Of a stretch of 64,000 bases of DNA, positions 5,426 through 61,435 are shown one piece after another. The stretch spans positions 2,942 through 66,941 of the forward strand of contig CALRBR010000001.1 in the NCBI GenBank assembly GCA_943354385.1, in the 5' to 3' direction. The translations under genes were made by a program, and so were the position numbers. A model generated the notes under the pieces. The model saw nothing but the letters and a program-made list of their open reading frames with translations. It had not been told where the DNA came from and did not search any database. The first letter of the stretch is position 1. Every line of letters begins with the position of its first letter. This DNA is from Candidatus Tayloriibacteriota bacterium. GTDB taxonomy: Bacteria; Patescibacteriota; Minisyncoccia; Phycocordibacterales; PALSA-1337.

Positions 5426-5602
5426 CAAAATGAGCGTAGCGATTTTTAAGAGTAGCTGGAATCGGACCGGAAAGGGGTCGGGAAAAATGGCGTTTTCCCG
5501 TGGAGGAAGGATTGGGAGAACCTCGGCCCATCGGTAGATGATGTGCACCTGTAGACGGGGTTCCCCAGGCGTTCGATAATGAAATGTCCCGCCACTAGCA
5601 CA
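5426..5602 (+). repeat. tRNA-trailer composite element A (conserved core GGAAAGGGGTCGGG plus a hairpin plus GTGGAGGAA); ends in a 16-nt duplicate of the tRNA-Gly 3' end
   Basis: The core is shared with copies at 8718-8790, 13534-13613, 51896-51975(-) and 61240-61400(-). tcccgccactagcaca at 5587-5602 matches tcccgccactcgcaca at 5412-5427. Confidence 0.7.
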
Positions 5603-8450: not shown

Positions 8451-8590
8451 ATTCTCCCTTTAGGAAAGGCCGTCCACAGGTGTCGATCACAAACGATCGA
8501 CTCTGCACCGACAGTACTCTGGCGCGGAGGGATTTAAAATTTAAATCCCTCGGCTTGAAGCCTGCTCCCTTTAGAAAAGGGAGAATAATA
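8451..8590. repeat. modular hairpin repeat cluster R1 (CTCCCTTT..AAAGGGAG, GTCGATC..GATCGAC and GGAGGGATTT..AAATCCCTCC modules)
   Basis: The modules recur at 32243-32350, 33100-33313, 40963-41140, 50641-50672 and 56674-56805. Confidence 0.75.
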
Positions 8591-8596
8591 CAAATC

Positions 8597-8669
8597 GCTC
8601 CCGTAGTTCAATTGGATAGAACGGACCGTTCCTAATGGTTTGATGTCGGTTCAATTCCGGCCGGGAGCA
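8597..8669 (+). tRNA. tRNA-Arg(CCT)
   Basis: Acceptor GCTCCCG/CGGGAGC, D-arm GTTC-AATTGGATA-GAAC, anticodon loop TTCCTAA, T-arm GTCGG-TTCAATT-CCGGC, discriminator A. Confidence 0.85.
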
Positions 8670-8943
8670 CAGCATAAAAAGTATTTTTTGTGCTGTGCGA
8701 ATGGTCGGAATTGAACCGGAAAGGGGTCGGGAAAACAGGCGTTTTCCCGTGGAGGAAAACAACGAGTATTGGAGTGTTAGAAACCGTGGGCTGTACACCG
8801 AATGCTTGGAGGTGTACAGAGACGGAGACTGTCGAGTCGAGTCCGGGTCGGGGACATTTTTAGTAAAAAATGATTCCTGACTCGTAAGAGCCCTGAGTGA
8901 AGCGATGGGCGAGTTCAATAGCGAAGCGTCCGGCCGGGAGCAC
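8670..8943 (+). repeat. tRNA-trailer composite element B; bounded by a 15-nt duplicate of the tRNA-Arg 3' end
   Basis: It starts with an inverted copy of the tRNA T-arm (TCGGAATTGAACCGG). The conserved core is at 8718-8790. tccggccgggagcac at 8929-8943 equals 8656-8670. Confidence 0.7.
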
Positions 8944-12857: not shown

Positions 12858-12919
12858 AAAACTCTCATTTTAAAAAAGAGCAAATTATCATAAAATCACC
12901 AATATAGCCTCGAGCAGAG

Positions 12920-13047
12920 GCCTGTTTTGGCGGAAAGGCTCAACGGGCGAAGGCGAGGAAGATGTCGAGTTTAGTAAAACTCGCTACAAGCACGGTACGC
13001 CTTTGAGCTTATACCTCCCCGAAAATCTACCGATTTTCGGGGAGGTA
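12920..13047. repeat. composite repeat (GGCTCAACGG module, TTAGTAAAACTCGCTACA module, CCCCGAAAATC-N6-GATTTTCGGGG hairpin)
   Basis: The same modules occur at 31181-31321 and 45505-45626. The hairpin alone occurs at 22491-22526. Confidence 0.75.
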
Positions 13048-13485: not shown

Positions 13486-13620
13486 CAGAAACGAACGCAG
13501 TGAGTCTGTGATAAGATCTAGGTTCGAACGTTGGAAAGGGGTCGGGAAAACCCTAGTTTTCCCGTGGAGGAAAACAACGAGTACTCGAGTGTTAGAAACC
13601 GTTGGTTTCTAAAGCATAGA
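13486..13620 (+). repeat. tRNA-trailer composite element C (core 13534-13613)
   Basis: ggaaaggggtcgggaaaaccctagttttcccgtggaggaaaacaacgagtactcgagtgttagaaaccgttggtttctaaag. A degenerate tRNA 3'-end-like stretch is at 13664-13690. Confidence 0.7.
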
Positions 13621-17226: not shown

Positions 17227-17269
17227 GGGTTGTATAGTAGCAAAATAGAGTGGTTTTTGAAAGCCTCAG

Positions 17270-17400
17270 ATTTATAAGGAGCGGATCGACTATATAAATC
17301 GAGAACACCGAGGTATTTCCCTCGGTGCCGGTCAATAGAGCAAAGCAACCTTATTTCTTTCTTCTCCGTATGAGTCAAGACGATACCCTTTTTAAAGCAA
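17270..17400. repeat. repeat family C copy (GATTTATAAGGAGCGGATCGACTATATAAATCGAG plus GGTCAATAGAGCAAAGCAACCT)
   Basis: Homologous copies at 26875-27020 (+) and 31325-31490 (-). Confidence 0.7.
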
Positions 17401-22462: not shown

Positions 22463-22490
22463 AGACTGTGAAGATTTGTGTTTTGGAATA

Positions 22491-22526
22491 ATCCCCCGAA
22501 AATCAGTAGATTTTCGGGGGATTATG
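22491..22526. terminator. bidirectional terminator hairpin (member of the CCCCGAAAATC hairpin repeat family) between the convergent HK and trxB genes
   Basis: atcccccgaaaatcagtagattttcgggggat flanked by A/T runs. Confidence 0.6.
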
Positions 22527-26809: not shown

Positions 26810-26874
26810 AGTGGGATACATACTACCATGGTGGAATAAAAAAGGCAATCTTATAGTACTGGATTTATGATTTA

Positions 26875-27062
26875 TGTCCCCGATTTATAACGAGCGGACA
26901 CTGATTTATAAAGAGTGGAACGACTATATAAATCAAGTGGGCCTAACTACCTTCTTCGGCCAAGGCCAATAGAGAGGAGCAACCTCATAAATTCTGTTCT
27001 TCCGAGAAATTCCACAAATTTTCAGTTGAAAGGCTCAACGGTGCACCGTTGAGCCTTTCCGC
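26875..27062. repeat. repeat family C copy plus a GGCTCAACGG hairpin module
   Basis: ggatttatgatttatgtccccgatttataacgagcggacactgatttataaagagtggaacgactatataaatcaag ... ggccaatagagaggagcaacctc ... ggctcaacggtgcaccgttgagcc. Confidence 0.7.
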
Positions 27063-27144
27063 CAAACCAAGCCTTTGTTCAAAGCTATTTTTGCTATTTT
27101 ATATGATTCGTGAAGCTTAAATCATACTTCGTAAATCAAGAGTC

Positions 27145-31180: not shown

Positions 31181-31490
31181 GCGATTTTAGCAAAACTCGC
31201 TACAGGCCAAGAGCTAGGTTCCAACGGCTCAACAGGCCTGTTGAGCCGTTGAGCGCTCCTATACTGAGCCGTTTTGACAAAATAGCTAATCCCCCCGAAA
31301 ATCAGTAGATTTTCGGGGGGAGGAATTTCGAGAAACAGGGTTTATGTGGTCGCTTCACCCCATTGGCCAACAGCTTAGGGGATACCTCGGTGTATAGGAG
31401 CCACGACGGTGGCGGACATACTGAGCTCAACAGAGCTAAGTGCTCGATTTATATAGTCGTTTCGCTCCTTATAAATCGAGGACATAAATC
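31181..31490. repeat. composite repeat block: GGCTCAACGG/CCCCGAAAATC-hairpin family copy (31181-31321) followed by a family C copy in reverse orientation (31325-31490)
   Basis: ttagcaaaactcgctaca, ggctcaacaggcctgttgagcc, ccccccgaaaatcagtagattttcgggggg. The reverse complement of 31440-31490 matches family C. Confidence 0.75.
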
Positions 31491-32192
31491 CTAAATATTC
31501 CTTCTTTTCTTCAAATACGCCAGCCAAAAGTTGCGTTTGTAGCTTTGATTATTGAACCTCGTATACTGAGTACTTTTTTCGAGTGATTGAATAGTAAAAA
31601 GAGGTGAGTAGGTGGCAAGAAAATCTTCGCGACTCCAGACTCTTTCGAAAAGATCGAGCTCCGGCATGTAATAGGTCTCTGGCTCTGGCCCAGGACTCTG
31701 TTTTAAAAGATTCTTTGCATTTTCATCTCCATCTTTGCAGAGGGCGCGGACAAAAAAGTGACCACCAGGGGCGAGGACACGATGACATTCTTTTAGATAG
31801 ATAGAGCGCTCACTTTGGTCGAGAGAGTTGGAGGAGGTGATATCGAGAAGGACATCGAAAGAGTGGTCGGTAAATGGATACGGTGCGCCAATAGAGTGCT
31901 TGAGAAAAGTGATAGATGAGATAGGGAGCCCGAGCTCGCGTACGCGAGCTCGGGCCTTTTCGATAGCTGTATCAGCGATCTCCATGCCCGTTACGATAGC
32001 TCCATGCTCAGCTAGGTAGACACTATTTTTACCTCCACCCGAGCCGAGGTCGAGGACCCGTAGTCCATCTAGATTTACCTTTTCTTCTTTTCTCAAGAAC
32101 CTCACAAAATCTTTCACGCACGTCTGAGGCTCGTCACCGCCGGTGACGAGTTTTGGTTTGCGATATTCTTTTTCCCAAGCCTTTTCTTGCAT
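31491..32192 (-). CDS. class I SAM-dependent methyltransferase
   Basis: VLDLGSGGGKNSVYLAEHGAIVTGMEI (motif I, GxGxG) and a post-I acidic residue. Confidence 0.6.
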   Translation of the reverse strand: MQEKAWEKEYRKPKLVTGGDEPQTCVKDFVRFLRKEEKVNLDGLRVLDLGSGGGKNSVYLAEHGAIVTGMEIADTAIEKARARVRELGLPISSITFLKHSIGAPYPFTDHSFDVLLDITSSNSLDQSERSIYLKECHRVLAPGGHFFVRALCKDGDENAKNLLKQSPGPEPETYYMPELDLFERVWSREDFLATYSPLFTIQSLEKSTQYTRFNNQSYKRNFWLAYLKKRRNI

Positions 32193-32242
32193 GTGTTTGT
32201 TGCTAGATTTACGAGGTACGATTCATGATTCACGAATAATTC

Positions 32243-32350
32243 AAAATCCTCCACCTGGAGTACCAGGCACCTCCTTTAAAAAAGGAGGAATGGGGATGGA
32301 TTATTCTCCCTTGGTAAAGGGAGTACCCGTAGGGGGAGGGATTTCTCTAT
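32243..32350. repeat. modular hairpin repeat cluster R6
   Basis: aaaatcctccacctggagtaccaggcacctcctttaaaaaaggagg...attctcccttggtaaagggag...gggagggatttc. Confidence 0.7.
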
Positions 32351-32428
32351 TCATGAATCTTGAATCGTAAATCATGAATCTGTTCAAGTATTCTTGAATC
32401 TCCTTCCATTTCTGCTATACTGTACCGC

Positions 32429-33064: not shown

Positions 33065-33099
33065 TATAATTTAGGTACTGTCACTAATATATTATTCTC

Positions 33100-33313
33100 C
33101 CTTTTTTAAAGGGAGCACCGCTAGTACTCTAGCGTGGAGGGATTTGAAATCCAAAATCCTCCGTCTCGAGTACGAGCCACCTCCTTTAGAAAAGGAGGAA
33201 TAAATCCCTCGACTAACGTCTGCTGAGTCGATCGTTTATGATCGACACCTGTAGACGGGCACATCGGTAGATGATGTGCACTTGTAGACAGCCTTTAGGA
33301 AAGGGAGAATAAG
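33100..33313. repeat. modular hairpin repeat cluster R2 (all five module types)
   Basis: attctcccttttttaaagggag, ggagggatttgaaatccaaaatcctcc, cctcctttagaaaaggagg, gtcgatcgtttatgatcgacacctgtagacgg, catcggtagatgatgtgcacttgtagac, ending in aaagggagaataag. Confidence 0.8.
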
Positions 33314-33605: not shown

Positions 33606-33647
33606 TTTTTGAATAGGGGTAAAAAGTTTGTCGAGTATTGATTAAAA

Positions 33648-33694
33648 TAACTACAGCCCTAAAATTTTCAGTAGAAAATTTTAGGGCTGTAGTT
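33648..33694. promoter_or_regulatory. perfect 20-bp-stem hairpin in the leader or promoter region of the giant gene
   Basis: aactacagccctaaaattttc agtaga gaaaattttagggctgtagtt. No T-tract follows. tatataat lies 12 nt upstream of ATG 33746. Confidence 0.5.
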
Positions 33695-33745
33695 ATCCAC
33701 ACATACACACAGACTTTTCCTATTATTAGGTATATAATTGTACCT

Positions 33746-36700
33746 ATGCGTTTAGCAAAGTTATTTTTTGCTTCTATCCTTTTTATTTTCGGCTCGTTGT
33801 TTTTTGTATCTACGGCATCGGCGCAGTCTTTTCAGAATCCTCTTCTGTTTGTTCCATTCGAATTGGATTATGTCGACTATAGCTCCAATAAGCTCTATAG
33901 CAACTGGTTTACAGGAGGAGCTCCGGCCGACATTGATACAAGTATAAAAAAATTCGGTTCCGCTTCCGGCCATTTTCCAGCTACGGGAATAGATAGGGAG
34001 ATGTTATACAAAAGCCCTAATTTTGATTTCTCTAATCAAGATTTCACCATCGATTTCTGGTGGTATCCAACCACCCAAAGCGTGGGTTTTTTTAATAAAC
34101 CACTACTTTCTTTTTGGGATCTCAATGGAAGTGGTGGCATCAATAATGTTAAGTGGGCTTTAATCTATTTTAGTGAATATGATTTTTTTGCGGTGGTTGA
34201 TTACAATAAGGGAGTAATTCTACGTTCGATTGATAGTGGTGGACTATTAAATTTTAACCAATGGAATCATATATCTGTACAATGGAAGCAGGGGACAGGG
34301 GGTACCGATGGTGGCAGTGGGCTGGGTATTTCTATAAATGGCAAGATGCGTTCGTCAAACTCTTTTTATAACAATGGCATGATCCCGTCTGGGGTGGGTG
34401 CTATGGTGGTTGGAGACAGTGGTTCATCCTGGCCACGCGTCGATTATTATCTGGATGAACTTCGTGTTACAAAAGGTACAGCTCTATGGGGAAGCGTCGC
34501 CAATCAGAACGGTTCCTTTACCACTCCATCTATTAATGATTATCCAAAAATTGAAAACAAGACAGCGGAATCTGTTATAAGTACTACCGCTACACCCATG
34601 GTTCAAGGTACCATACCTCTTCTACTCGCGCATTTTGATAATAATTATTATGATAATAGTATAAATAATATTTACAGCAATTGGTTTATTGGCGGGGGAC
34701 CGTCTGAGATTGATTCGGCTATAAAAAAGTTTGGGATTGGGTCGGGACATTTTTCTGCAACAGGAATAGATAAGGAGAATCTATACCAAGACCCTCGGTT
34801 AGACCTTGCGAGCGGCGATTTTACTGTAGATTTCTGGTGGCGTCCGACAGGTGATTTGACTAGCTTTAATAAAATCCTATTGAGTTTTTGGGGTCTTGAT
34901 GCAAATAGTCTCATAAAAGATCGGAAGTGGTATCTAAAATATGACGGGAGTGGGGCGAACCCAGGTTTTGAAGTGGTTAATGATCAGGGTAGAATGCTTC
35001 GCTGGATGGGTAGCGATTCGCTTTTGAAGGTCAACGAATGGAATCATATTTCTCTACAAAAGAAACAGGGATCAGGGGGTAGTGATGGTGGTAGTGGTCT
35101 CGGTCTTTCTATCAATGGATATATGCGACCGTCCAATTCTTTCTATAACTACGGCACCCTTCCAGGAGGGGTTGGTGCGATGGTCCTAGGGTATAAAGAT
35201 ACAAGTTTCCCGAGAGTTGATTACTATATTGACGAACTTCGTGTCACAAAAGGTACAGCTCTCTGGGGGAATGTTAGTAATCAGAATGGTTACTTTGCTC
35301 CGCCCACAAAAGGTGATTATTCCAATCTAGTAGTAGATCAAAATAAAGTAACTACTCCTGTCGCTGGTCATATTGATACGCATACTGTCTCCCTTGGTAA
35401 CACCACTGATACTACTGAATCAAATGTTGCCTATTCTGCATGCCCTCCTGGATCGACCAGGCCATCTACACGCGAAGAGTATTTGATCAAACTCGACGGC
35501 ACCCCAAAGTTCACGAGCTATCTTGATATAAACAATAAGCTGATCTGTACGACGTATTGGGCAGGTAATGCGACAACCACTACCAGTAGTAAGCTAAAGC
35601 GTTTTGAGTACGATACTGATGGTCAGATCGCTCGAGAGATCTATTATGGTTTGGACGGTGCAAGTATTACTGATGTGGTGACTTATTTTTCAAAATCTGC
35701 CGGAGGTGCTCGTCAAAAGGAGATTCAAAATCGAAGCGGTACCGAATATTACAAGCGCTACTCGACTACCGGCAGACTTCTCTATGAGCACGAATATAAA
35801 AATAGTCAGTATGTAGTGTCGCGTAACTTTACGTATGATGGGGCAGGTAGACTCGCAAGCGAACTTATCTTTAACTCATCGGTTCAATATGAAAAAGTCG
35901 TTTATATACGAAATGGCAGTGGAGTCGTAACACAGACAGATAGTTACAGAGCGTATGCACCGATAGGTACAGATACGGCAAATTATGTCCACACCACCTC
36001 TACCTACGCAGGTACGGTGGTGACAGGTATTACTCGTACTTATTTCAATAAAGATGCTGGCTCACCGACGGCTTTGCGCACTGAAATAGCCCGATATAAT
36101 ACTTCCGGTGTAGCGATAGATCAGAGGACATTTGACTACGCTCAAAATAAACAAAAGTTGAGTACCTACATCACTACTGGCACAGCATCATTGCTTGGGC
36201 GACTGAAGACAGACGAGGAGTGGTCTACTGTGGATTATTCATACGCCTCATCTTCTCTTGCGTATAACACGACTACCGGCGAGCTCCTTTCTTGGACTAA
36301 AACCAACTATGACGATATGAGTGCTCAGGGCGCAAAAGCTGGATACTACGGGAAAAAATACACGGTGTATAACCCTAAAACAGGCTTACCCAAAACGGAG
36401 GATTTTATTGACTACTATTTACCTAGCTTAAATTGGAAACAATCCAACTCTGTTAAGTATGATGAAAAAGGTTTGGTGGATGCACGTCGGGTTCATCAGT
36501 ACAGAGATTCTGCTGCTGCAAGATTTAACTACATATCTACAGTATATTCAAAAGACGGGCTCATAAATGCGATTTCAAAGTATGACGATGTGACTGGTAA
36601 TGTTCTTTCTAACGAAACATATTATGGAAATGGCGAGCCTTGGTATCTTCAAAAATATAAGTACAATACTGCCGCTGGCCAATACGAAGTCAGTTCTTTC

Positions 36701-39700
36701 AGGGTAAATTATAGGGATGCTCTTTCTACCAGTACGGCGAGTGATCTTGTAGCTGACGGTACTGCCGTGAATACAAATCTCCTTGTTTTTGTGAGTCAGT
36801 CAGTCCCGAGAGACCCACTTAGTCAAAAGAAAATAGGTGATAAGATCTTGGCTAATATTTCTGATGTGTCTCTTCGTGGCCAAGCGGAGGGCGGTACTGA
36901 AAAGTTGGCTATTCGTGCGGTGCTCAAGGCTCTCTTACCAGAGTATAAAAACGCCCTCGTTACTGTTTCTGAAAGTGATCCACTCAAAAAGGAAAAACGT
37001 TACGAGATCTACGTGGCGTATTCCTCGAGAATATCTAGAGCGATTTATGCAATAGAGTATCGTATCCATAATATATCAAAAAATCTTAATACAGATAAGT
37101 CCTTAGAGGACACGGTGGTGGGATGGTATGGTATAGACGGTACTGATCTTTCAGGCAACACAGAATTCTGGGGTCTATATATACGACCGGGGGCAGTGGC
37201 GTATGCAGATCCAGAAGCTGTCTATGTAGACATGAGTATCATAGATCCATCTGCGGTTGATTTTGCCACAAACGCTTCTTCCTACGATGACCTCAAGAGT
37301 ACTGCAAAGAAAATAGAAAAATGGGACGCGCTCAGCCAGGGTGCGGGTGTCTCATATTCGAATAGTACTCTATCATTGTCATTGTTCAACCTATCCGGCG
37401 GCGACGGTAGATACATCACACTTGATGATATGACAAAAGCTGACCCAACAGTAAATCTTACATTGGATAGGTTTGAGGAGGACATGAAGACTTCGGGGGT
37501 AACACTCTCCACTCTTAGTGAGTCGGCGCTCATAGATAAGATGTATGAATACTTTAATAAACAAAGCTATTTCAGCTATTCGTACGACCTATCACAAGTA
37601 TCACAGACAGTAAATCAAACCTTGGTACGTAAAGGTGGAGATTGTGAAGATTTTGGTCTATTCTTCCTTAGTTTATTGAGGGGTGAATTTGCTAGACTCG
37701 GTAACACATCTATCACAAGCAGACTTGGTTTGGCGTTTGCGAATGTTGATAATAACGCTGCTATTTCGTCGAGTAACCGCGGAGGAGGTCATGCGTCTAT
37801 TGTGTATAGAAGTAATGCAGACAATCAGTACTACTATATTGATGCAAGCTTTATATTTTTGGGATCAGGGGCGGATCCTGCGAGACCTGTACCAGTAGCA
37901 CGTAATCTTGTAAACTCTGCCGGTGCCAGTACCGCAGGTGTATTGGGTCAGGGTGGCTGGTATGTAAAGGTTGCTGACTTCTTCCCAATAAACGGCCCAC
38001 TTGTCCCTTTTAATTCAGGACGTATTAGTACTTTCCACGATAACACCAGCCAGACTAATTCCGTAGATACCATTGTCGCCCAAGTTTCAAATATCTACAC
38101 CAAACTAGAACCATACAATCCGCTAGTCACCACACTTGCTTCGAGTACAGTCCAGACTATTCCTAACTTCAAAAATCAGTCAGCGGAGTTTGTGGTAGAA
38201 AGTACGCACAGCTTCTTTAATAAACTGAAAGATTACAGAGCCGATCAGGGAGCAGATATCTGGAGTGGTGTAGGTCAGACATTGCCAGCGGTTATAAAAG
38301 CAGACGGCACAGTCAATCTCGCTGGGAAGATTTCTGGCGACTGTGAGGACCTGGCTTTTGCTGAAGCGAGCCTCCTTGAAAATGTGCTTCTACGATATTA
38401 CCTTGCTGGTGGTGCCGTGCCACAAAATGCCGCCAATCAGGCAAAAAGTAATGTCATAATACTCGCTGAAAAGAATTACGGCTCATCGACAGGTCCCTCA
38501 CATCTCTATGTCGGCTATGTGACCCCTAAGACAGATACTTCTCCAGCTGTTGTCCGTCTCATTGATCCACAGCTCGGCACTATCGGCGCACCTCAGCTCA
38601 TGAGCGATTTGTATAACGACAAGTATCTATTCTTTTCTGACCGGGAAAAGGTGAGTGCGATTACTCCATACGATTGGAGTGCACTCAATTTTTCTTCTGC
38701 TGTAGCTGCCGCTGCTGCAAATGGTATCGTGTTAAATCCTGGTCCGGTAGATCCAAAGGCTCCGGTAAAGCAGAATCTCACCCCTAATCAACAGGAAGCG
38801 ATCATTAATGCGATAGTCACTGCAGACCCACCAAAGCCAAGTGCATTCAGTACATTTATTAGTTTTGTGTACGAAAAATCCGGACTAAAATCGATACTAG
38901 AGGCGAGTACTATTACAGAAACTTTTGTCCGAGCAGCAGCAACTTTGGCAGTGATGATAGGTGGTGGACCAGTAGGGACAGTAGTCACAGCATCTGGCAC
39001 TATTATTAATACAGCCTCAGGGTCACCAGCAGATAAGCCTATCATTCCTAGCGTAGGTGATGCAGCGGTTTCTGTTATAAATACTGCAGGGCGAGTCGTG
39101 GCGAGTGTTTTCGGTATCTTTACGGCACCAGGTGGACCATCTGATATGTCTGACGCACGAATGAACGCTGAGGCAGCTTTTGCTGCTGGGAGAATCAGTC
39201 CAGCTGGACCAATGAATTTCGGTTCCGGTGCTGGAGATGTAGGTTGCTCCGCGGCTTCATGCGGTACTGTTTTTGTCCAAAGAAATAATACTACAAATGT
39301 GGTATCTGCGATTGGCTATGGTGAAACATCTCGTACTAATCAGACTAGGTCGTATAACGAGTCTACTAATGTGATGACCATTACTACCAATACCACGATT
39401 GTACTACCTCTGTCGCCATATTTTCAGTCGCCAACAGCCCGTCTTATACCGCCAAAACCTACATGCCCCCTAGGCACCCAACTTTGTTCCGAGGTAACCA
39501 ATGAGATAGTTAGAGCTCCAGCAAACGCCACTCTTTCCGGTCCTCTGGCTACCTGCTATGTTTCTGGTGAAGCACCGTCTTGTCAGACGCGTCAGTACAA
39601 TACACAGTGGTCGTGCAATAACTCACTTTTGTATAAAAAAGATGCTACAGGTACAGGCTGTATCTGTGATGATCCAACAGCAACTGGTGTTAGTCCAGCG

Positions 39701-40576
39701 GGTGAGTGTCAGTACGGCGCGACGATATCCTGTGTGGGGGGTATTGATCCAAACGCCATACCGTCACCAGTAGGTGTTGGTGCGAAAGGGGTCAGTTCAT
39801 TCCCTGCTCCAGCTGGCCGAATTTCTTCTCCGCTAGCGTGGACACTTTCTAGTACAGCTGTTGCGGACGGTAATACCGAATGTAAATGGTCGTGTGGTAC
39901 CGGGTTTACTTTTGACGCTGGATTTTGTAAATCGAGTCAAGTATTTTCTTGCACGGATCCTGTCGGAGTTACACCGATGAATAGTCCAAAGATGACTTTG
40001 TGTCCAGAAGATCAGAGAGATCTTTCTTCAGACACACAAGGTGTAATTGTCACTAGCTGTACCATCCCTAAAAAATGTGAGTATACATGCAATCTTCCTA
40101 CGTATACACGTTCCTCGACACCACCATTTTCTTGTGTTTGCTCGATAGGGACAAACCCTGATGGATCGTGTACACTGCCCACCGTGACTTCTTCTAACGT
40201 GAGTATCTTTGCTACCCCTGGAACAAAAGTTACTGGTAATATTGTAACTCAATATCTGGATACTAATAAATCAACCGCTATTAATAAAAAGATTACCGTA
40301 AAAAAGAACCAGGAGTTTAAATTGAATTGGGAGCATACTACACCAAGCGCCTCAGGTAAATGTACGCCAACATTTACCAGTCCTATTACTGGCACTGGTG
40401 CGGAAGCACTATGGAAAGAAGTCCTACCTACTGGAGTGAATGGTTCAAAGGAGGGTTTGAAACTAGATAAAACCGGCCAGTATATCTTTGGAGTTTCTTG
40501 TGATTCAGGAGGTATAACTTCTGCAGATTCCGTAACTGTACAAGTAGCACCATCCGGTTCATTTGAAGAATTTTAA
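33746..40576 (+). CDS. giant secreted multidomain protein: signal peptide, 2x LamG-like (Laminin_G_3-type), YD/RHS repeats, 2x transglutaminase-like cysteine-protease cores, Cys-rich region, C-terminal beta domain
   Basis: Signal peptide MRLAKLFFASILFIFGSLFFVSTASA. Two ~230-aa units ending in LDELRVTKGTALWG (LamG-type). FEYDTDGQIAREIYYG and FTYDGAGRLASE YD repeats. GGDCEDFG...GGGHASIVYRS...YYIDAS and GDCEDLAFAEASLL...HLYVGY...IDPQ (transglutaminase-like Cys/His/Asp cores). More than 30 Cys between nt 39470 and 40190. Confidence 0.85.
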   Translation: MRLAKLFFASILFIFGSLFFVSTASAQSFQNPLLFVPFELDYVDYSSNKLYSNWFTGGAPADIDTSIKKFGSASGHFPATGIDREMLYKSPNFDFSNQDFTIDFWWYPTTQSVGFFNKPLLSFWDLNGSGGINNVKWALIYFSEYDFFAVVDYNKGVILRSIDSGGLLNFNQWNHISVQWKQGTGGTDGGSGLGISINGKMRSSNSFYNNGMIPSGVGAMVVGDSGSSWPRVDYYLDELRVTKGTALWGSVANQNGSFTTPSINDYPKIENKTAESVISTTATPMVQGTIPLLLAHFDNNYYDNSINNIYSNWFIGGGPSEIDSAIKKFGIGSGHFSATGIDKENLYQDPRLDLASGDFTVDFWWRPTGDLTSFNKILLSFWGLDANSLIKDRKWYLKYDGSGANPGFEVVNDQGRMLRWMGSDSLLKVNEWNHISLQKKQGSGGSDGGSGLGLSINGYMRPSNSFYNYGTLPGGVGAMVLGYKDTSFPRVDYYIDELRVTKGTALWGNVSNQNGYFAPPTKGDYSNLVVDQNKVTTPVAGHIDTHTVSLGNTTDTTESNVAYSACPPGSTRPSTREEYLIKLDGTPKFTSYLDINNKLICTTYWAGNATTTTSSKLKRFEYDTDGQIAREIYYGLDGASITDVVTYFSKSAGGARQKEIQNRSGTEYYKRYSTTGRLLYEHEYKNSQYVVSRNFTYDGAGRLASELIFNSSVQYEKVVYIRNGSGVVTQTDSYRAYAPIGTDTANYVHTTSTYAGTVVTGITRTYFNKDAGSPTALRTEIARYNTSGVAIDQRTFDYAQNKQKLSTYITTGTASLLGRLKTDEEWSTVDYSYASSSLAYNTTTGELLSWTKTNYDDMSAQGAKAGYYGKKYTVYNPKTGLPKTEDFIDYYLPSLNWKQSNSVKYDEKGLVDARRVHQYRDSAAARFNYISTVYSKDGLINAISKYDDVTGNVLSNETYYGNGEPWYLQKYKYNTAAGQYEVSSFRVNYRDALSTSTASDLVADGTAVNTNLLVFVSQSVPRDPLSQKKIGDKILANISDVSLRGQAEGGTEKLAIRAVLKALLPEYKNALVTVSESDPLKKEKRYEIYVAYSSRISRAIYAIEYRIHNISKNLNTDKSLEDTVVGWYGIDGTDLSGNTEFWGLYIRPGAVAYADPEAVYVDMSIIDPSAVDFATNASSYDDLKSTAKKIEKWDALSQGAGVSYSNSTLSLSLFNLSGGDGRYITLDDMTKADPTVNLTLDRFEEDMKTSGVTLSTLSESALIDKMYEYFNKQSYFSYSYDLSQVSQTVNQTLVRKGGDCEDFGLFFLSLLRGEFARLGNTSITSRLGLAFANVDNNAAISSSNRGGGHASIVYRSNADNQYYYIDASFIFLGSGADPARPVPVARNLVNSAGASTAGVLGQGGWYVKVADFFPINGPLVPFNSGRISTFHDNTSQTNSVDTIVAQVSNIYTKLEPYNPLVTTLASSTVQTIPNFKNQSAEFVVESTHSFFNKLKDYRADQGADIWSGVGQTLPAVIKADGTVNLAGKISGDCEDLAFAEASLLENVLLRYYLAGGAVPQNAANQAKSNVIILAEKNYGSSTGPSHLYVGYVTPKTDTSPAVVRLIDPQLGTIGAPQLMSDLYNDKYLFFSDREKVSAITPYDWSALNFSSAVAAAAANGIVLNPGPVDPKAPVKQNLTPNQQEAIINAIVTADPPKPSAFSTFISFVYEKSGLKSILEASTITETFVRAAATLAVMIGGGPVGTVVTASGTIINTASGSPADKPIIPSVGDAAVSVINTAGRVVASVFGIFTAPGGPSDMSDARMNAEAAFAAGRISPAGPMNFGSGAGDVGCSAASCGTVFVQRNNTTNVVSAIGYGETSRTNQTRSYNESTNVMTITTNTTIVLPLSPYFQSPTARLIPPKPTCPLGTQLCSEVTNEIVRAPANATLSGPLATCYVSGEAPSCQTRQYNTQWSCNNSLLYKKDATGTGCICDDPTATGVSPAGECQYGATISCVGGIDPNAIPSPVGVGAKGVSSFPAPAGRISSPLAWTLSSTAVADGNTECKWSCGTGFTFDAGFCKSSQVFSCTDPVGVTPMNSPKMTLCPEDQRDLSSDTQGVIVTSCTIPKKCEYTCNLPTYTRSSTPPFSCVCSIGTNPDGSCTLPTVTSSNVSIFATPGTKVTGNIVTQYLDTNKSTAINKKITVKKNQEFKLNWEHTTPSASGKCTPTFTSPITGTGAEALWKEVLPTGVNGSKEGLKLDKTGQYIFGVSCDSGGITSADSVTVQVAPSGSFEEF

Positions 40577-40962: not shown

Positions 40963-41140
40963 AAATCCCTCGACCTGCTGGTCTGCTCCCTTTAAAAAAG
41001 GGAGAATGGATGCAGACCCCTTCATTCTTTGATAAGGTGGGCCGTCTACAGATGTCGATCAGCGAATGATCGACTTGTTTGCGTATCATTCTCCCTTTTT
41101 TAAAGGGAGCACCGCCAGTAATCTGGCGTGGAAGGATTTC
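40963..41140. repeat. modular hairpin repeat cluster R3
   Basis: aaaatccctcgacc, ctccctttaaaaaagggagaatgg, gccgtctacagatgtcgatcagcgaatgatcgac (inverted module), cattctcccttttttaaagggagcaccgcc. Confidence 0.75.
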
Positions 41141-41859: not shown

Positions 41860-41903
41860 TTCTTCTACATTAATATTGCGACCGCAATATTAATGTAGAA
41901 GAG
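41860..41903. repeat. 44-bp palindrome IR-L (21-bp arms, centre AC) immediately 3' of the PaaX-like gene
   Basis: ttcttctacattaatattgcg ac cgcaatattaatgtagaagagg. It is the reverse complement of the copy at 42589-42634. Confidence 0.9.
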
Positions 41904-41911
41904 GCGTGTAG

Positions 41912-42502
41912 TTAATTTTTTAAATTAAAATACTTACAAATCATCTTGTCACCCTCGAGTTGATCGACTATCATATAGAGAACATCTTTGCCGATACGCA
42001 AATCTGCCTTCAAAAGAGACACGAGTTTTTCGCACGGATATGGGTATATCCAGACGCTGTTCTGAAGTTTTATAAAGCCGATTGACATTAATGTTGATCG
42101 AAGTTTTTCCCGAATAAACTTCTTTCTTTCTGGAATATCGAAAATAATCACACGCCACTTCTTATCCCACCTTGGCGGATGGTTATTTTGTTTTGAAAAA
42201 AGAATTGCTCGGTCGAGCATCTTTTTGCCCCTTTCTGTGAGTTGAAGTACCTTGCCATGAACTGTGACCTCAACTTTCAGGAAGCCATTTTTGATAAGAT
42301 TATCTTTCGTTCTCAGTATACTTTTGTGTTTGTAATTATAGGCTTTCCTGTCTCCAGAACCGATCTTCAATAATTTTAAGGCATTTGGAGCAAGAAGTCC
42401 GAGTGCAAGTATTCCGGTGGCAGATACAGTTCCAAGTATTATCTGTTGGAGTTTTGTTGTTCGTATCTTGTTCCTCTCCCGTTTTTCTAGTAAGTTGTTC
42501 AT
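41912..42502 (-). CDS. membrane-anchored wHTH plus Cas2-fold (PaaX-family-like) putative regulator
   Basis: N-terminal hydrophobic helix. wHTH-like LIKNGFLKVEVTVHGKVLQLTERGKKML. C-terminal VIIFDIPERKKFIREKLRSTLMSIGFIKLQNSVWIYPYP resembles the Cas2/PaaX C-domain (VxxYDI...RR...L...G.R.Q.SV). Confidence 0.45.
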   Translation of the reverse strand: MNNLLEKRERNKIRTTKLQQIILGTVSATGILALGLLAPNALKLLKIGSGDRKAYNYKHKSILRTKDNLIKNGFLKVEVTVHGKVLQLTERGKKMLDRAILFSKQNNHPPRWDKKWRVIIFDIPERKKFIREKLRSTLMSIGFIKLQNSVWIYPYPCEKLVSLLKADLRIGKDVLYMIVDQLEGDKMICKYFNLKN

Positions 42503-42588: not shown

Positions 42589-42634
42589 CCTCTTCTACAT
42601 TAATATTGCGGTCGCAATATTAATGTAGAAGAGG
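42589..42634. repeat. 46-bp palindrome IR-R (22-bp arms, centre GT), 87 nt upstream of the PaaX-like gene start
   Basis: cctcttctacattaatattgcg gt cgcaatattaatgtagaagagg. Confidence 0.9.
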
Positions 42635-45227: not shown

Positions 45228-45504
45228 AAGAATGTCCAAAATTAGCTCATCTGCTTTGTCGCCGATTCCGTATTCTTCCGCAATGTCGATTTCGCGAAAT
45301 CGCGTCGCGCACCGTCCACTGAGACGCGACGTACATTTTGGTCGCATTACTCATCAGCTTCGCGCAGCTAATTTAATTTTGGGCATTCTTGATTCCCACC
45401 ATAGAATAAATTAAACGAGACTCCCACGAAATTTGCTAATACAAACTTCGGGAGATTTTCGCTCAAAACACAAAAATAGCCTCACGCAGTGGCCTAGTTT
45501 GGTG

Positions 45505-45626
45505 GAAGGGCTCAACGGTACTGTTGTGCTGATAATGAGTCTTGCTGGAATCGTTATCTTCGTCGTCTCCTCTTCGGGCCTTTTAATTAGAATTCCCCGA
45601 AAATCTGCTGATTTTCGGGGAGACTG
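45505..45626. repeat. GGCTCAACGG plus CCCCGAAAATC-hairpin family copy
   Basis: gggctcaacggtactgttgtgc ... ttccccgaaaatctgctgattttcggggag. Confidence 0.7.
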
Positions 45627-49777: not shown

Positions 49778-49805
49778 AGAAAAGACTAGCAGGAGAAATA
49801 CAAAA

Positions 49806-49834
49806 CCCCCGCGACGTAGTCGCGGGGGTTTTGT
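49806..49834 (+). terminator. rho-independent terminator after the 2-TM array
   Basis: cccccgcgacg-ta-gtcgcggggg followed by TTTTGT. Confidence 0.7.
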
Positions 49835-49927
49835 ATTATGTGTTTATATATATCTAGCAAAAAATAAAAAACCAGGGTCTGAACAAATTCAGATGCACCT
49901 GGCTCGCGTTGTTTGGGGGACTCACAG

Positions 49928-50530
49928 TCAGAGGCCGGTAAAGACGACCCGGACTTCTTCCCGCTCGGTGCCGGAAGTGAATCGGAGTGCCCGCAGGACC
50001 TTGGGGTGTGACTCTCCCCGGTTATGGGTGTGCCACACAAGGTCGAAGTCCTGCCACTCGTTCAGCACCGTCCGCTGGGTTTCCCATCGAGCACTTGCTC
50101 CGAGGGGGACTACGACCTCGACGCTACTGTTTGGCGCCAGTTTCAGTGTTTCCCGAGAGGTCGACTTGACCTCGTGGGCGTTGGGATTGATGATCACATT
50201 CCGGCTAATGGCGTTACCATTGCCTGCTGTGAAAACGTCTCCTTCCGTGAAGTGCACCGTGGGCGTGGGTGGGACCTCGGCCTTGGCTGGCGCCGGAGGG
50301 TTTGTGGCCAACTGCTGAGTCGGTGCCGGTGACTGAGCCTGGGCACTCGCTCCCCACGAGGGGAGGGGCCCTTCATAAGACGACACCCTCCAGAGGAACA
50401 TCCACCAGAGGCATCCTGCCAGGACAATGCCCAGGAGTATTGCAACTCCTTGTGCGTTGTTGTGTTGCACCGCGGGCACTGCGATGACCGCCGGCTTTCC
50501 ACCGCAGATCCAAATCCAGATTTTTTTCAT
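49928..50530 (-). CDS. hypothetical membrane-anchored or secreted protein (GC-rich island)
   Basis: Start at MKKIWIWI. TM helix GVAILLGIVLAGCLWWMFLW, Pro/Ala-rich linker, then an unknown ~110-aa C-terminal domain. Confidence 0.45.
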   Translation of the reverse strand: MKKIWIWICGGKPAVIAVPAVQHNNAQGVAILLGIVLAGCLWWMFLWRVSSYEGPLPSWGASAQAQSPAPTQQLATNPPAPAKAEVPPTPTVHFTEGDVFTAGNGNAISRNVIINPNAHEVKSTSRETLKLAPNSSVEVVVPLGASARWETQRTVLNEWQDFDLVWHTHNRGESHPKVLRALRFTSGTEREEVRVVFTGL

Positions 50531-50640
50531 AGGCTTTTTTTTGAGTTTGATTTCCTCCGACACTGCCACGATGGACAGCCCTAATTCTGCGTGTGTATTG
50601 CCCACAGATATAGGAGAGGGGACGCTTCGTTGAGAGCGTA

Positions 50641-50672
50641 TCATTCCCCCTTTTCTAAAGGGAGAATGACTC
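50641..50672. repeat. single hairpin module (ATTCCCCCTTTTCTAAAGGGAGAATG) of the modular repeat family
   Basis: cattcccccttttctaaagggagaatgactcg. Confidence 0.6.
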
Positions 50673-50978
50673 GTCTGAAGTGCCTCTTCTTCTATATCTG
50701 TGACTTGTGTGCCAAAGAACTGTAATTTACCTCTACCTTCAATTATAGCATACTATGTATACATTTGTCAAGTGTTTATGTATAATATGGCTCAAATAAG
50801 CCAAAAAGCTTTGTTTTTAGGGGGGGGTAGAACTACTCTAAGAGAAAATAAGCAAAGCTTTTTTCAACTTCGACTCGAACGCTGTAAACGAGAGTACTCG
50901 CTTACGCGCTTCTCGCTTGTTGAAATAAAAAAGCCAACACTCGGGGCGTTGACCTGGGGGAAAGAAGAGTGGATCGGT

Positions 50979-51859: not shown

Positions 51860-52024
51860 GAGGCTTAAGGCGGGTATCTCACTCGGAGCAAAGCTCCTCT
51901 TTAGAAACCCACGGTTTCTAACACTCGAGTACTCGTTGTTTTCCTCCACGGGGAACTCCCGTTCCCCGACCCCCTCCCACGGTTCGAGACCGGCCTAGGG
52001 GCGGTAAACCGAACGGTTTACTTG
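51860..52024 (-). repeat. tRNA-trailer composite element D (3' of tRNA-Cys on the - strand); its core hairpin carries a compensatory change
   Basis: On the - strand: GGGGGTCGGGGAACgggaGTTCCCCGTGGAGGAAAACAACGAGTACTCGAGTGTTAGAAACCGTGGGTTTCTAAAG. A terminator-like hairpin gtaaaccgttcggtttac lies right after the tRNA-Cys. Confidence 0.7.
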
Positions 52025-56650: not shown

Positions 56651-56673
56651 GTAAGGTGTTGAGTTATTCTCCC

Positions 56674-56805
56674 TTTGTAAAGGGAGCACTTCACTACTGT
56701 GAAGGAGGGATTTCCTCAGTACTCAAAATCCTCCGCTCTCTATGGGGCACCGAGTCGATCGTTTGTGATCGACACCTGTAGACGGCCCTTAGGAAAGGAG
56801 GAATT
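56674..56805. repeat. modular hairpin repeat cluster R5
   Basis: attctccctttgtaaagggagcac, ggagggatttcctcagtactcaaaatcctcc, gtcgatcgtttgtgatcgacacctgtagacgg, ccttaggaaaggaggaat. Confidence 0.75.
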
Positions 56806-60999: not shown

Positions 61000-61435
61000 G
61001 TCTTATAAATATGAATGCGGGCCCACCTAGACTCCTGGGGAACCCACGGTTGATAGTCCGCTGAGTACCATCCTTACAGGAGCTGTACACCTTTCGCTCT
61101 CTTTGGAGTACAAAGCGCTCAAGGTCTTGCGAAGCTCCAGGTATTCGCTTCTCACCTTACATGAGTAGTATCCATCGCTGGACTTTTTCTTCGCGAGTAC
61201 ACTTAAAAAAGTACTCAGCGAGGCTTCGAGTCTCAGACACCTCGTAAACCCACGGTTTTCCGACGCTCGTCGGGCTCGCTGCCTTCCTCCACGGGAAAAC
61301 GCCATCTTCCTTACAGGAACTGTACACCTTTCGCTTTTTGAATACAAAATACTCAAGGTCTTGCGAAAGTGTCCCACACTTTCTCACCCGACCCCTTTCC
61401 ATGTCTCATCGTCCATTTGTTCGCTTCGCTCTCTG
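61000..61435 (-). repeat. tRNA-trailer composite element E (3' of tRNA-Trp on the - strand), with an interrupted core and two ~62-nt internal direct repeats
   Basis: On the - strand: GGAAAGGGGTCGGG (61386-61399 on +) ... inserted unit ... GGCGTTTTCCCGTGGAGGAAGG. Units are at 61062-61124 and 61301-61360. The module shared with element F is at 61184-61240. tgcgggccc at 61016-61024 duplicates the tRNA-Trp 3' end. Confidence 0.7.

Follow-up and report, generated by a model that had tools for sequence, protein, structure and literature searches.

Repeats with the potential to fold into an intrastrand DNA triplex have been described in Escherichia coli, where the element known as BoxC, and later as PIT, was subsequently named TMECO, an intrastrand triplex motif repeat found also in other Proteobacteria (Holder et al. 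2015, PMC4666352; see also Hoyne et al. 2000). Its pattern, CCCTCNCCC-N3-6-GGGNGAGGG-N3-GGGNGAGGG, belongs to class II, in which pyrimidine, purine and reverse-Hoogsteen purine blocks lie on one strand and form the triads C-G.G, T-A.A and T-A.T; the ITxF definition of this class specifies a stem of 6-15 nt with no more than one mismatch, and two loops of 1-6 nt each (PMC4666352). TMECO copies are always intergenic, without strand bias or association with mobile elements, and have no known transposase; in E. coli every inverted pair (5/5) joins a type A copy to a type B copy (PMC4666352). A stable triplex is formed in vitro on a single strand while none was detected in vivo, and PIT/BoxC loci are more rearranged between strains (PMC4666352). 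The subject of this analysis is a set of hairpin repeats dispersed in the intergenic spacers of a 64,000-nt stretch of a Candidatus Tayloriibacteriota genome (assembly GCA_943354385.1, contig CALRBR010000001.1, positions 2,942 to 66,941), hereafter called the window. On balance, they probably represent two small, non-autonomous palindromic DNA repeat families inserted beside and into one another, the first of which (family 1) carries a triplex motif and would have spread through a single-stranded DNA (ssDNA) stage.

The original prediction, made from the window alone, had described a dispersed family of small hairpin-forming repeats building mosaics in intergenic spacers, with the order and orientation of five modules (a to e) changing from site to site in the manner of bacterial interspersed mosaic elements (BIMEs). 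Direct reading of the sites bears this out, the modules being found where they had been placed at 7/7 sites and beside the genes that had been named. In a regular-expression scan of the window, module a, CTCCCTTT-N3/4-AAAGGGAG, forms seven hairpins (at 8565, 32306, 33097, 40986, 41091, 50646 and 56669), the loop being 3-4 nt and not 4-6 nt as first given, while module c, CCTCCTTT-N3-AAAGGAGG, forms two (32270 and 33180). The motifs of b, GGAGGGATTT and AAATCC(C)TC(C), are located at 8526/8543, 32335, 33136/33153, 33202, 40963, 41130 and 56704/56725. Four copies of module d, GTCGATC-N6/7-GATCGAC adjoining ACCTGTAGACGG, are present (8470-8501 and 41042-41074 on the minus strand, 33227-33258 and 56754-56785), as well as two of module e, the CATCGGTAGATGATGTGCACYTGTAGAC module (5529-5558 and 33259-33289). 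Shuffling the window yields by chance 0.08 occurrences of each hairpin type and 0.01 of the d box, which was found five times, a number reached in 0/100 shuffles; a repeat finder run on the window independently recovered the module families. The same elements occupy the same two spacers flanking the gene of the MBL-fold protein, essentially invariant, in five other aligned assemblies of the same species, and this excludes contamination and assembly artefact, the more so as elements of family 1 are present in hundreds of unrelated contigs and so are not peculiar to the window. The best named relatives of the ClpB and MBL-fold proteins of the window are found in metagenome-assembled genomes (MAGs) of 'Candidatus Taylorbacteria/Paceibacterota', and the host belongs to the Parcubacteria/Paceibacteria group within Patescibacteria.

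Modules a, b and c, first taken for independent stem-loops, are segments of one unit, U, of 36-52 nt (about 45 nt). From 5' to 3' it consists of a pyrimidine arm s1 (ATTCTCCCTTT), a loop of 3-4 nt, a purine arm s2 (AAAGGGAG), the trinucleotide (C/T)AC, a variable hairpin P2 and a purine tail s3, (G)GAGGGATTT; what had been described as module b is the pairing between the tails of two inverted units. Units start with ATTC and finish with ATTT, and no terminal GTAG or CGTC tag is present. Subtype Ub, with CCTCC/GGAGG arms and the tail GGAGGATTT, corresponds to module c. Two units of different subtype, CTCCC + CCTCC, are joined tail-to-tail into doublets of 90-115 nt, as in the 108-nt element at 33094-33201 (Ua followed by inverted Ub), and units in the window also occur permuted or truncated. 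At 32244-32344 and 40963-41139 the order of the halves is reversed to head-to-head, as if by circular permutation. The elements at 8451-8590 and 56666-56804 are mutually reverse-complementary (87% over 53 nt), and in both of them module d intervenes between the purine arm and the remainder of one half.

Modules d and e constitute a separate family (family 2), which turned up in this species and its sister and nowhere else. They share a common design, in which a hairpin of 7 bp leads into AC(C/T)T and GTAGAC(GG); among the copies the stem is 7-8 bp and the loop 4-7 nt, and GTAG, present in 5/5 copies, lies 4 nt (ACCT/ACTT) from the stem within a longer conserved box, CCTGTAGACGG. The elements of the window, with pyrimidine-purine-purine order abbreviated as Y-R-R, are as follows.

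33094..33145, plus strand: unit Ua (class II Y-R-R; 8/8 allowed triads), with s1 ATTCTCCCTTT at 33094-33104, the loop, s2 AAAGGGAG at 33108-33115, the P2 hairpin CGCTAGTACTCTAGCG at 33119-33134 and the tail s3 GGAGGGATTT at 33136-33145.
33153..33201, minus strand: unit Ub, inverted partner of the preceding Ua (fold z = -6.7); on the plus strand it reads AAAATCCTCC, P4 hairpin GTCTCGAGTACGAGCC, then CCTCCTTT-AGA-AAAGGAGG-AAT.
33202..33226, strand unassigned: orphan tail AAATCCCTC and a spacer, whose CGTCTGC can pair with the downstream GTAGACG box.
33227..33258, plus strand: module d, hairpin GTCGATCG-TTTA-TGATCGAC followed by ACCT-GTAGACGG; GTAG-tagged and REP-like (REP, repetitive extragenic palindrome).
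33259..33289, plus strand: module e, hairpin GCACATC-GGTAGAT-GATGTGC followed by ACTT-GTAGAC, of the same design as module d.
33292..33310, strand unassigned: truncated hairpin CCTTT-AGG-AAAGGGAGAAT, the right end of the composite; the junction recurs at 8451-8469 and 56786-56804.
32244..32291, minus strand: unit Ub, first half of a permuted head-to-head pair.
32303..32344, plus strand: unit Ua, second half of that pair (32244-32344), with the potential to close a three-way junction through its outer tails AAAATCCTCC and GGAGGGATTT.
8451..8535, plus strand: unit Ua, its purine arm cut at AAAGG by a module d inserted on the other strand (8470-8501), continuing with P2 CGACAGTACTCTGGCG and the tail GGAGGGATTT at 8526-8535.
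8543..8586, minus strand: unit Ua, inverted partner of 8451-8535, ending 10 nt before tRNA-Arg (8597-8670).
40963..41007, minus strand: unit Ua.
41024..41074, minus strand: degenerate hairpin arm ATTCTTTGATAAGG, then module d on the minus strand (CCGTCTACAGAT and GTCGATCAGCGAATGATCGAC).
41088..41139, plus strand: unit Ua, 91% identical to 33090-33145.
50643..50667, strand unassigned: solo hairpin ATTCCCCCTTT-TCT-AAAGGGAGAAT, tail absent.
56666..56713, plus strand: unit Ua.
56725..56804, minus strand: partner half bearing module d; plus-strand order tail AAAATCCTCC, weak hairpin, module d (56754-56785), truncated arm CCCTTAGGAAAGGAGGAAT.
5529..5558, plus strand: isolated module e, CATCGGTAGATGATGTGCACCTGTAGACGG.

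In every core variant of family 1 the tail core is the reverse of the purine arm and neither its complement nor a direct copy of it (arm/tail cores GGGGG/GGGGG, GGAGG/GGAGG, AGGGAG/GAGGGA, AGAGGGG/GGGGAGA, AGGGAGA/AGAGGGA and AGGGAGG/GGAGGGA). The rule was assessed on pyrimidine-purine hairpins with asymmetric cores at the loci of the genome scan described below, each hairpin being counted once per strand and blocks being sought within 45 nt downstream. Among the matches listed, mirror versus direct blocks numbered 15 versus 2 for the core AGGGAG (16 hairpins), 9 versus 1 for AGAGGGG, a type absent from all search patterns, 4 versus 0 for AGGGAGA and 3 versus 0 for AGGGAGG. A tail that mirrors its arm has no Watson-Crick meaning; it fits the need of an antiparallel purine-motif third strand (G.G-C, A.A-T, T.A-T). 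The mean number of allowed triads over 174 half-units is 7.6 in the antiparallel register versus 4.6 in the parallel one. The eight complete hairpin-plus-mirror-tail units of the window, with stems of 7-8 nt, have 7-8 of 7-8 allowed triads each, with one non-allowed triad in two units, and 30 Markov-resampled windows yielded 0 such units. The conserved bulged G in the Ua/Ub tail-tail stem is also explained, because the tail core follows its own hairpin core and not the tail of the partner. Thus, the window units have the class II order of blocks and stay within its limits for triads, stem length and mismatches; their first loop is 3-4 nt, and their second, at 12-21 nt, is itself a hairpin in all copies, while most copies from other phyla have a second loop of no more than 6 nt. 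On a single strand the arms would form a Watson-Crick hairpin and the tail would fold back antiparallel onto the purine arm to give 7-8 triads, a fold predicted from the order of the blocks.

Another repeat family, found always beside tRNA genes, GGAAAGGGG-TC-GGGAAAAC-N4-GTTTTCCC-GTGGAGGAA..., fits, when read by hand, a triplex motif of class I (R-R-Y) whose allowed triads number 6, AAAGGG being the mirror image of GGGAAA. Its copies (5469-5541, 8718-8790 and 13533-13614 on the plus strand; 51899-51955 and 61275-61308 on the minus strand) are near-identical.

The hairpins of family 1 are conserved despite sequence drift. Fold energies, calculated with ViennaRNA from Watson-Crick and wobble pairs only, correspond to z-scores of -3.6 to -6.7 for the window composites taken as single-strand DNA. 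Most phyla have a linker of 6 nt (ATTCCCCCTTT-N-AAAGGGGG-ANNNAG-GGGGATTT) between the purine arm and the tail; in Patescibacteria it is a variable hairpin, and hairpin linkers are also present in a few other MAGs. The 171 linkers of at least 10 nt, comprising 139 distinct sequences, have a mean energy of -6.05 kcal/mol versus -2.21 in shuffles, and 91% of them lie below -2 kcal/mol. When the Y-R-R strand is taken, 553 Watson-Crick, 31 G.T and 7 A.C pairs are counted in their stems (p = 0.003 versus base composition), the excess of G.T over A.C suggesting that the Y-R-R strand is the folding strand. One P2 column pair is C-G in 12 sequences, G-C in 6 and U-A in 3, and in the window a compensatory double change in P2, from CTAG/CTAG to CCAG/CTGG, separates the copy at 33090-33145 from that at 41084-41139, with the caveat that quasi-palindrome template-switch correction can yield such 'compensation' without selection. 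An alternative long-hairpin fold is also predicted for the doublets. RNAalifold, applied to 26 doublets, favours the latter and was discarded as a discriminator, because the conserved arms never vary and the program therefore cannot tell the folds apart.

Conserved hairpins of this kind might instead act in RNA; in roles like those put forward for REPs, they would, once transcribed, terminate transcripts, protect 3' ends against exonucleases, or serve in processing or attenuation. Every copy in the window is intergenic and would be transcribed along with its neighbours, and G.T pairs are tolerated in the family 1 stems; one copy is followed after 10 nt by tRNA-Arg and is itself preceded by an extended -10 box, and the copy upstream of clpB replaces a terminator-like hairpin of the sister species. 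Among 52 doublets with both flanks called, 28 are in co-directional, 16 in convergent and 8 in divergent contexts, and the surplus of convergent over divergent ones points the same way. However, of all element hairpins only the module d stem at 41054-41074 passed the terminator criterion (hairpin plus T-run), so that canonical intrinsic terminators can be rejected, and the recognisable terminators of this genome have a different appearance. Orientation relative to transcription is not fixed either, Ua being upstream in 18 cases and downstream in 9, which is not a significant bias, and window copies lying both ways. The mirror symmetry of the tail has no Watson-Crick rationale in RNA, purine-motif triplexes do not form in RNA, and PIT/BoxC has neither promoter nor terminator activity (PMC4666352); moreover, copies persist in frame inside coding regions. 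An action through RNA is therefore unlikely. Sequestering of the Shine-Dalgarno sequence by CACCTCCTTT/AAAGGAGG, which have an anti-Shine-Dalgarno/Shine-Dalgarno look, was rejected, as a start codon lies at a usable distance in no doublet. A known RNA family was rejected as well: Rfam at gathering level gave only tRNAs for the window and 18 other loci, and with E-value thresholds only chance-level matches of microRNA type.

Family 1 is distributed far beyond the window. A scan of one genome per GTDB species with the hairpin pattern alone (ATTCYCCCTTT-N2-4-AAAGGGRG, which does not include the tail) detected at least 120 stretches. Among the matches listed, at least 20 phyla are represented, including Patescibacteria, Nitrospirota, Omnitrophota, Ignavibacteria, Desulfobacterota, Bacteroidota, Chloroflexota, Planctomycetota, Proteobacteria (with a complete genome of Acinetobacter lwoffii), Bacillota and others, and a matching purine tail followed by T was found within 40 nt in 103/135 matches and 94/120 loci. 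Metagenomes were scanned with the Ua tail-tail junction as the query, the resulting counts being lower bounds. Together, the two scans provided at least 87 distinct complete doublets among the matches listed; about 74/87 of these are hetero-dimers (60 Ua+Ub and about 14 Ua+Uc, with CCCCC), only 5-7 of 87 are homo-dimers, and the Ua/Ub asymmetry is kept across many Patescibacterial contigs. On a Nitrospirales chromosome (OY820905.2, L026:5209-6267) three short-linker units are located inside a 274-nt tandem repeat, and a fourth is nearby. Phage or plasmids as vehicles were rejected, since BLAST against phage and plasmid collections returned 3 short matches in Acinetobacter plasmids and 9 weak ones in microviruses, and viral contigs were nearly empty, with only 20 hairpin matches in 2.9 million. 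A literature search with sequence words returned only noise.

Each doublet contains six copies of one 7-9-nt motif, (A/T)TC(C/T)CCCT(T), in alternating orientation. Such an array could be read by a nucleoid-associated protein, gyrase or a regulator, and REP/BIMEs of E. coli bind IHF and gyrase (PMC3479197). Proteins reading duplex DNA, however, do not equate a sequence with its mirror image, the hairpins between the motifs are conserved as structure and not as sequence, and a design kept in at least 20 phyla is not expected to serve one specific binder; a role as protein-binding arrays thus has very little probability.

Comparison with related genomes gives the insertion history at three spacers. 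The gene of a trypsin-like protease (Trypsin_2) and clpB are 203 nt apart in the window, where the element is present; in the sister species, whose ClpB is 93% identical, the spacer measures 90 nt and contains an unrelated terminator-like hairpin, and a relative with 80% identical ClpB has 96 nt. The element upstream of the MBL gene is absent from the sister species. Downstream, the MBL gene is separated from a small open reading frame (ORF) by 277 nt, including a 220-nt composite, versus 31 nt in the relative L139 with the same gene neighbours, and in the sister species it is followed by a differently composed element and then a different gene, gatB. The elements at these three spacers are therefore derived insertions.

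Presence or absence at orthologous sites is equally expected of ordinary miniature inverted-repeat transposable elements (MITEs), that is, deletion derivatives of an insertion sequence (IS) moved by a DDE transposase acting on the terminal inverted repeats (TIRs) ATTC(T/C)CCC...GGG(A/G)GAAT, with the internal hairpins incidental. The doublets, dispersed and 90-115 nt long with identical inverted ends, resemble such elements, as do the in-frame positions inside genes described below, which are known for some MITEs and for the Rickettsia palindromic elements (RPEs). Against this, no complete copy shows a target-site duplication (TSD), none of about 220 sampled copies is adjoined by an autonomous element or transposase, and the 'TIR' is merely the outer portion of a hairpin arm. 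Half-units that occur alone, permuted or as hetero-dimers are better accounted for by a mechanism recognising hairpins than by one requiring two defined ends, and MITE derivation is accordingly quite improbable. A linked transposase or common neighbour was rejected in general: clustering of the flanking ORFs at about 220-240 sampled loci found no recurrent neighbouring gene, and a transposase was absent from the called and Pfam-scanned genes of the window. No RAYT gene was seen among these window genes, nor any recurrent neighbour at about 240 loci, and the flanking genes of sampled loci disclosed no link to particular gene classes.

In other Patescibacteria, doublets lie in frame inside genuine genes, encoding an Mfd-like helicase, GT4 glycosyltransferases, and KsgA, PPDK_N and Dus proteins (L158:2111-4603, L166:31-1212, L181:3849-4652, L194:9841-10728, L202:957-2045 and L235:954-2036). 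The inserts add about 30-35 residues with motifs such as YSSFSKGGG...PF.KG. In the PPDK_N protein the Pfam match spans the 33-residue insert, and in two cases, GT4 and KsgA, the insertion site is common to two diverged homologs.

These data are consistent with two palindromic families, the triplex-motif one having spread by insertion of doublets through an ssDNA stage with the help of an enzyme encoded elsewhere, for which an HUH/Y1-type protein would be the obvious candidate. The triplex-capable fold may be what is recognised or selected, and the doublets could also be extruded as cruciforms or long hairpins. Like BoxC, the elements would have little direct regulatory role and might act mainly as structural obstacles and rearrangement hot spots.

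Several facts weigh against this reading. The six assemblies aligned at the two sites flanking the MBL gene all carry the elements unchanged in the same positions, and mobility is accordingly low or nil at present; sequence differences of 9-13% separate the copies of the genome; the called and Pfam-scanned genes of the 64-kb window include no transposase of any kind, and no complete copy has a visible TSD. As to the triplex, the 13-21-nt hairpin that serves as the second 'loop' of the Patescibacterial units exceeds the defining 1-6 nt; the tail also pairs by Watson-Crick rules with the tail of its partner, which is enough to conserve it and not enough to make it a mirror; the mirror evidence comes from four asymmetric core variants, perhaps two or three independent events; and the TMECO triplex was detected neither in vivo by dimethyl sulfate (DMS) footprinting nor in duplex DNA (PMC4666352).

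A bolder possibility, to which only a low probability can be given, is that family 1 is a pan-bacterial mobile element whose recognition and spread rely on its folded ssDNA triplex, a hairpin with a reverse-Hoogsteen third strand, instead of on ends defined by sequence. A structure-specific enzyme would move it, and the element would have passed repeatedly between phyla and become a tolerated, 'exon-like' in-frame insert in housekeeping proteins of the candidate phyla radiation (CPR). If this were true, the mirror covariation would be the first comparative evidence of a DNA triplex under selection in bacteria. Work on intrastrand-triplex repeats has been nearly confined to E. coli, with its mirror-symmetric core, and the asymmetric covarying cores make it testable whether the triplex fold is conserved. 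Repeats of this type are present and tolerated in CPR genomes despite their strong reduction, even within essential genes. For annotation this means spurious inserts of about 33 residues in CPR proteins, and in MAG assembly the repeats may be points at which contigs end. They may play a part in rearrangements as well, the sister species having a different gene downstream of its MBL-adjacent element.

The surroundings of the elements have features of their own. The element at 32243-32350 is enclosed by an outer 21-nt inverted repeat, ACGATTCATGATTCACGAATA (32217-32237) and TATTCATGAATCTTGAATCGT (32349-32369), and is situated in the divergent promoter region that separates the methyltransferase gene from the MBL gene, with more copies like GATTCATGAATC further on. 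The giant gene at 33638-40576 (2312 aa, Laminin_G_3) is 84-89% identical in strains that otherwise share 94-99% across the aligned region, with an indel between 34512 and 35033 in those strains, and in the relative L139 the whole block from the giant gene to the PaaX gene is absent between the small ORF and gyrA. The two composites were considered as the inverted ends of a giant-gene cassette; this was rejected because the MBL gene has as its ancestral neighbour the 87-aa ORF that comes immediately after the left element. The gene of the PaaX_M-like regulator (41912-42502, minus strand), just upstream of gyrA, is flanked by two 44-nt near-perfect palindromes, TCTTCTACATTAATATTGCGACCGCAATATTAATGTAGAAGAGG (41861-41904 and 42589-42634), which are operator candidates. 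The solo hairpin at 50643-50667 overlaps the ATG of an ORF (49928-50644, minus strand) in a GC-rich region (0.51; 49800-50780) with two overlapping ORFs without a Pfam match, a perfect TTGACA-18-TATAAT promoter on the minus strand (50771-50742) and a strong bidirectional terminator (49797-49837).

The tRNA-Arg gene is followed by an inverted copy of its 3' half (8647-8718), giving a long hairpin with the acceptor and T arm, and the same arrangement is present after tRNA-Tyr in the sister species (L011:12820-12900). Long A/T-extended terminator-like hairpins, CCCCGAAAATC-N-GATTTTCGGGG, are found at 13009-13044, 22486-22521, 31285-31320 and 45587-45622 and in the sister species (L011:9916-9957), where a hairpin of this type stands exactly at the position of the clpB-upstream element of the window. 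Two further families of dispersed intergenic repeats are represented by GATTTATAAGGAGCGG...TATAAATCGAG and by ATAAAATCACCAATATAGCCTCGAGCAGAGGCC... (17269-17354, 26863-26988, 31440-31496; 12890-12946, 27046-27102, 45471-45519).

Among known systems, the nearest kind is BoxC/PIT/TMECO and, for the behaviour inside genes, the Rickettsia RPEs. The latter were reportedly described by Ogata et al. (2000). Both RPEs and family 1 are palindromic elements of about 100 nt in small reduced genomes, located between genes and in frame inside conserved ones, and both add about 30-35 residues without destroying the gene, a property seen for family 1 in related Patescibacteria and not in the window. RPEs, however, are of another sequence family and are not known to have been called Y-R-R triplex motifs; two of them, RPE-4 and RPE-6, are listed among CGTC REPs (PMC3733652).

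REPs, REPINs and BIMEs resemble the window repeats in that palindromic units occur singly, as inverted doublets or in alternating clusters with defined linkers (Di Nocera et al. 2013, PMC3733652). Such elements go with RAYT transposases (Bertels & Rainey 2011), a REPIN-RAYT system having a cognate, single-copy RAYT (Y1/HUH) gene with the repeats on its flanks. Family 1 has the REPIN-like organisation of inverted hairpin doublets but lacks the GTAG/CGTC tag, and some of its relatives are intragenic. Family 2 resembles REPs whose GTAG-tagged kind measures 20-40 bp, has a stem of 6-13 bp and finishes on one side in an unpaired GTAG (PMC3733652). As in GTAG-1 and GTAG-2 REPs, the GTAG of modules d and e lies beyond the foot of the hairpin, with unpaired bases between stem and tag, although these number four (ACCT) instead of two. 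With the Correia/NEMIS MITEs of Neisseria, family 1 shares small size, non-autonomy, dispersal, inverted ends and the possibility of co-transcription with neighbours; unlike them, it lacks TSDs and a parental IS, which leaves strict MITE membership unsupported, and its building block is a half-unit found alone or permuted. The original prediction is thus partly supported: its REP/BIME/MITE-like label holds for dispersed hairpin repeats with BIME-like variation, but the nearest relatives are BoxC/PIT/TMECO and not classical REPs and BIMEs or MITEs with TIRs and TSDs.

With BoxC/PIT/TMECO, family 1 shares the class II order of pyrimidine arm, 3-6-nt loop, purine arm, second loop and second purine block. 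In both, multiple intergenic copies occur without strand bias, linked transposase or gene-class association, loci differ between close relatives, and inverted pairs combine two different subtypes (in family 1 mostly, about 74/87 of the doublets listed). The sequences are unrelated: the window units read CTCCCTTT-N3-AAAGGGAG-...-GAGGGATT, with A/T-clamped (T)TC(T/C)CCCTTT cores and 7-8 triads, whereas TMECO has CCCTCNCCC and 9 triads. The second loop is a variable hairpin of 13-21 nt in Patescibacterial family 1 versus 3 nt in TMECO, and the published triplex-motif finder would miss these copies because its loops are limited to 1-6 nt. BoxC/PIT/TMECO is known from Proteobacteria and is always intergenic, whereas family 1 extends over at least 20 phyla including CPR and has in-frame intragenic copies. 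Since its cores are asymmetric, the antiparallel register can be read from comparative data, which the mirror-symmetric core of TMECO does not allow. Relative to the known triplex repeats, family 1 is therefore new in its sequence, its hairpin second loop, its phyletic breadth, its intragenic copies and its asymmetric cores.

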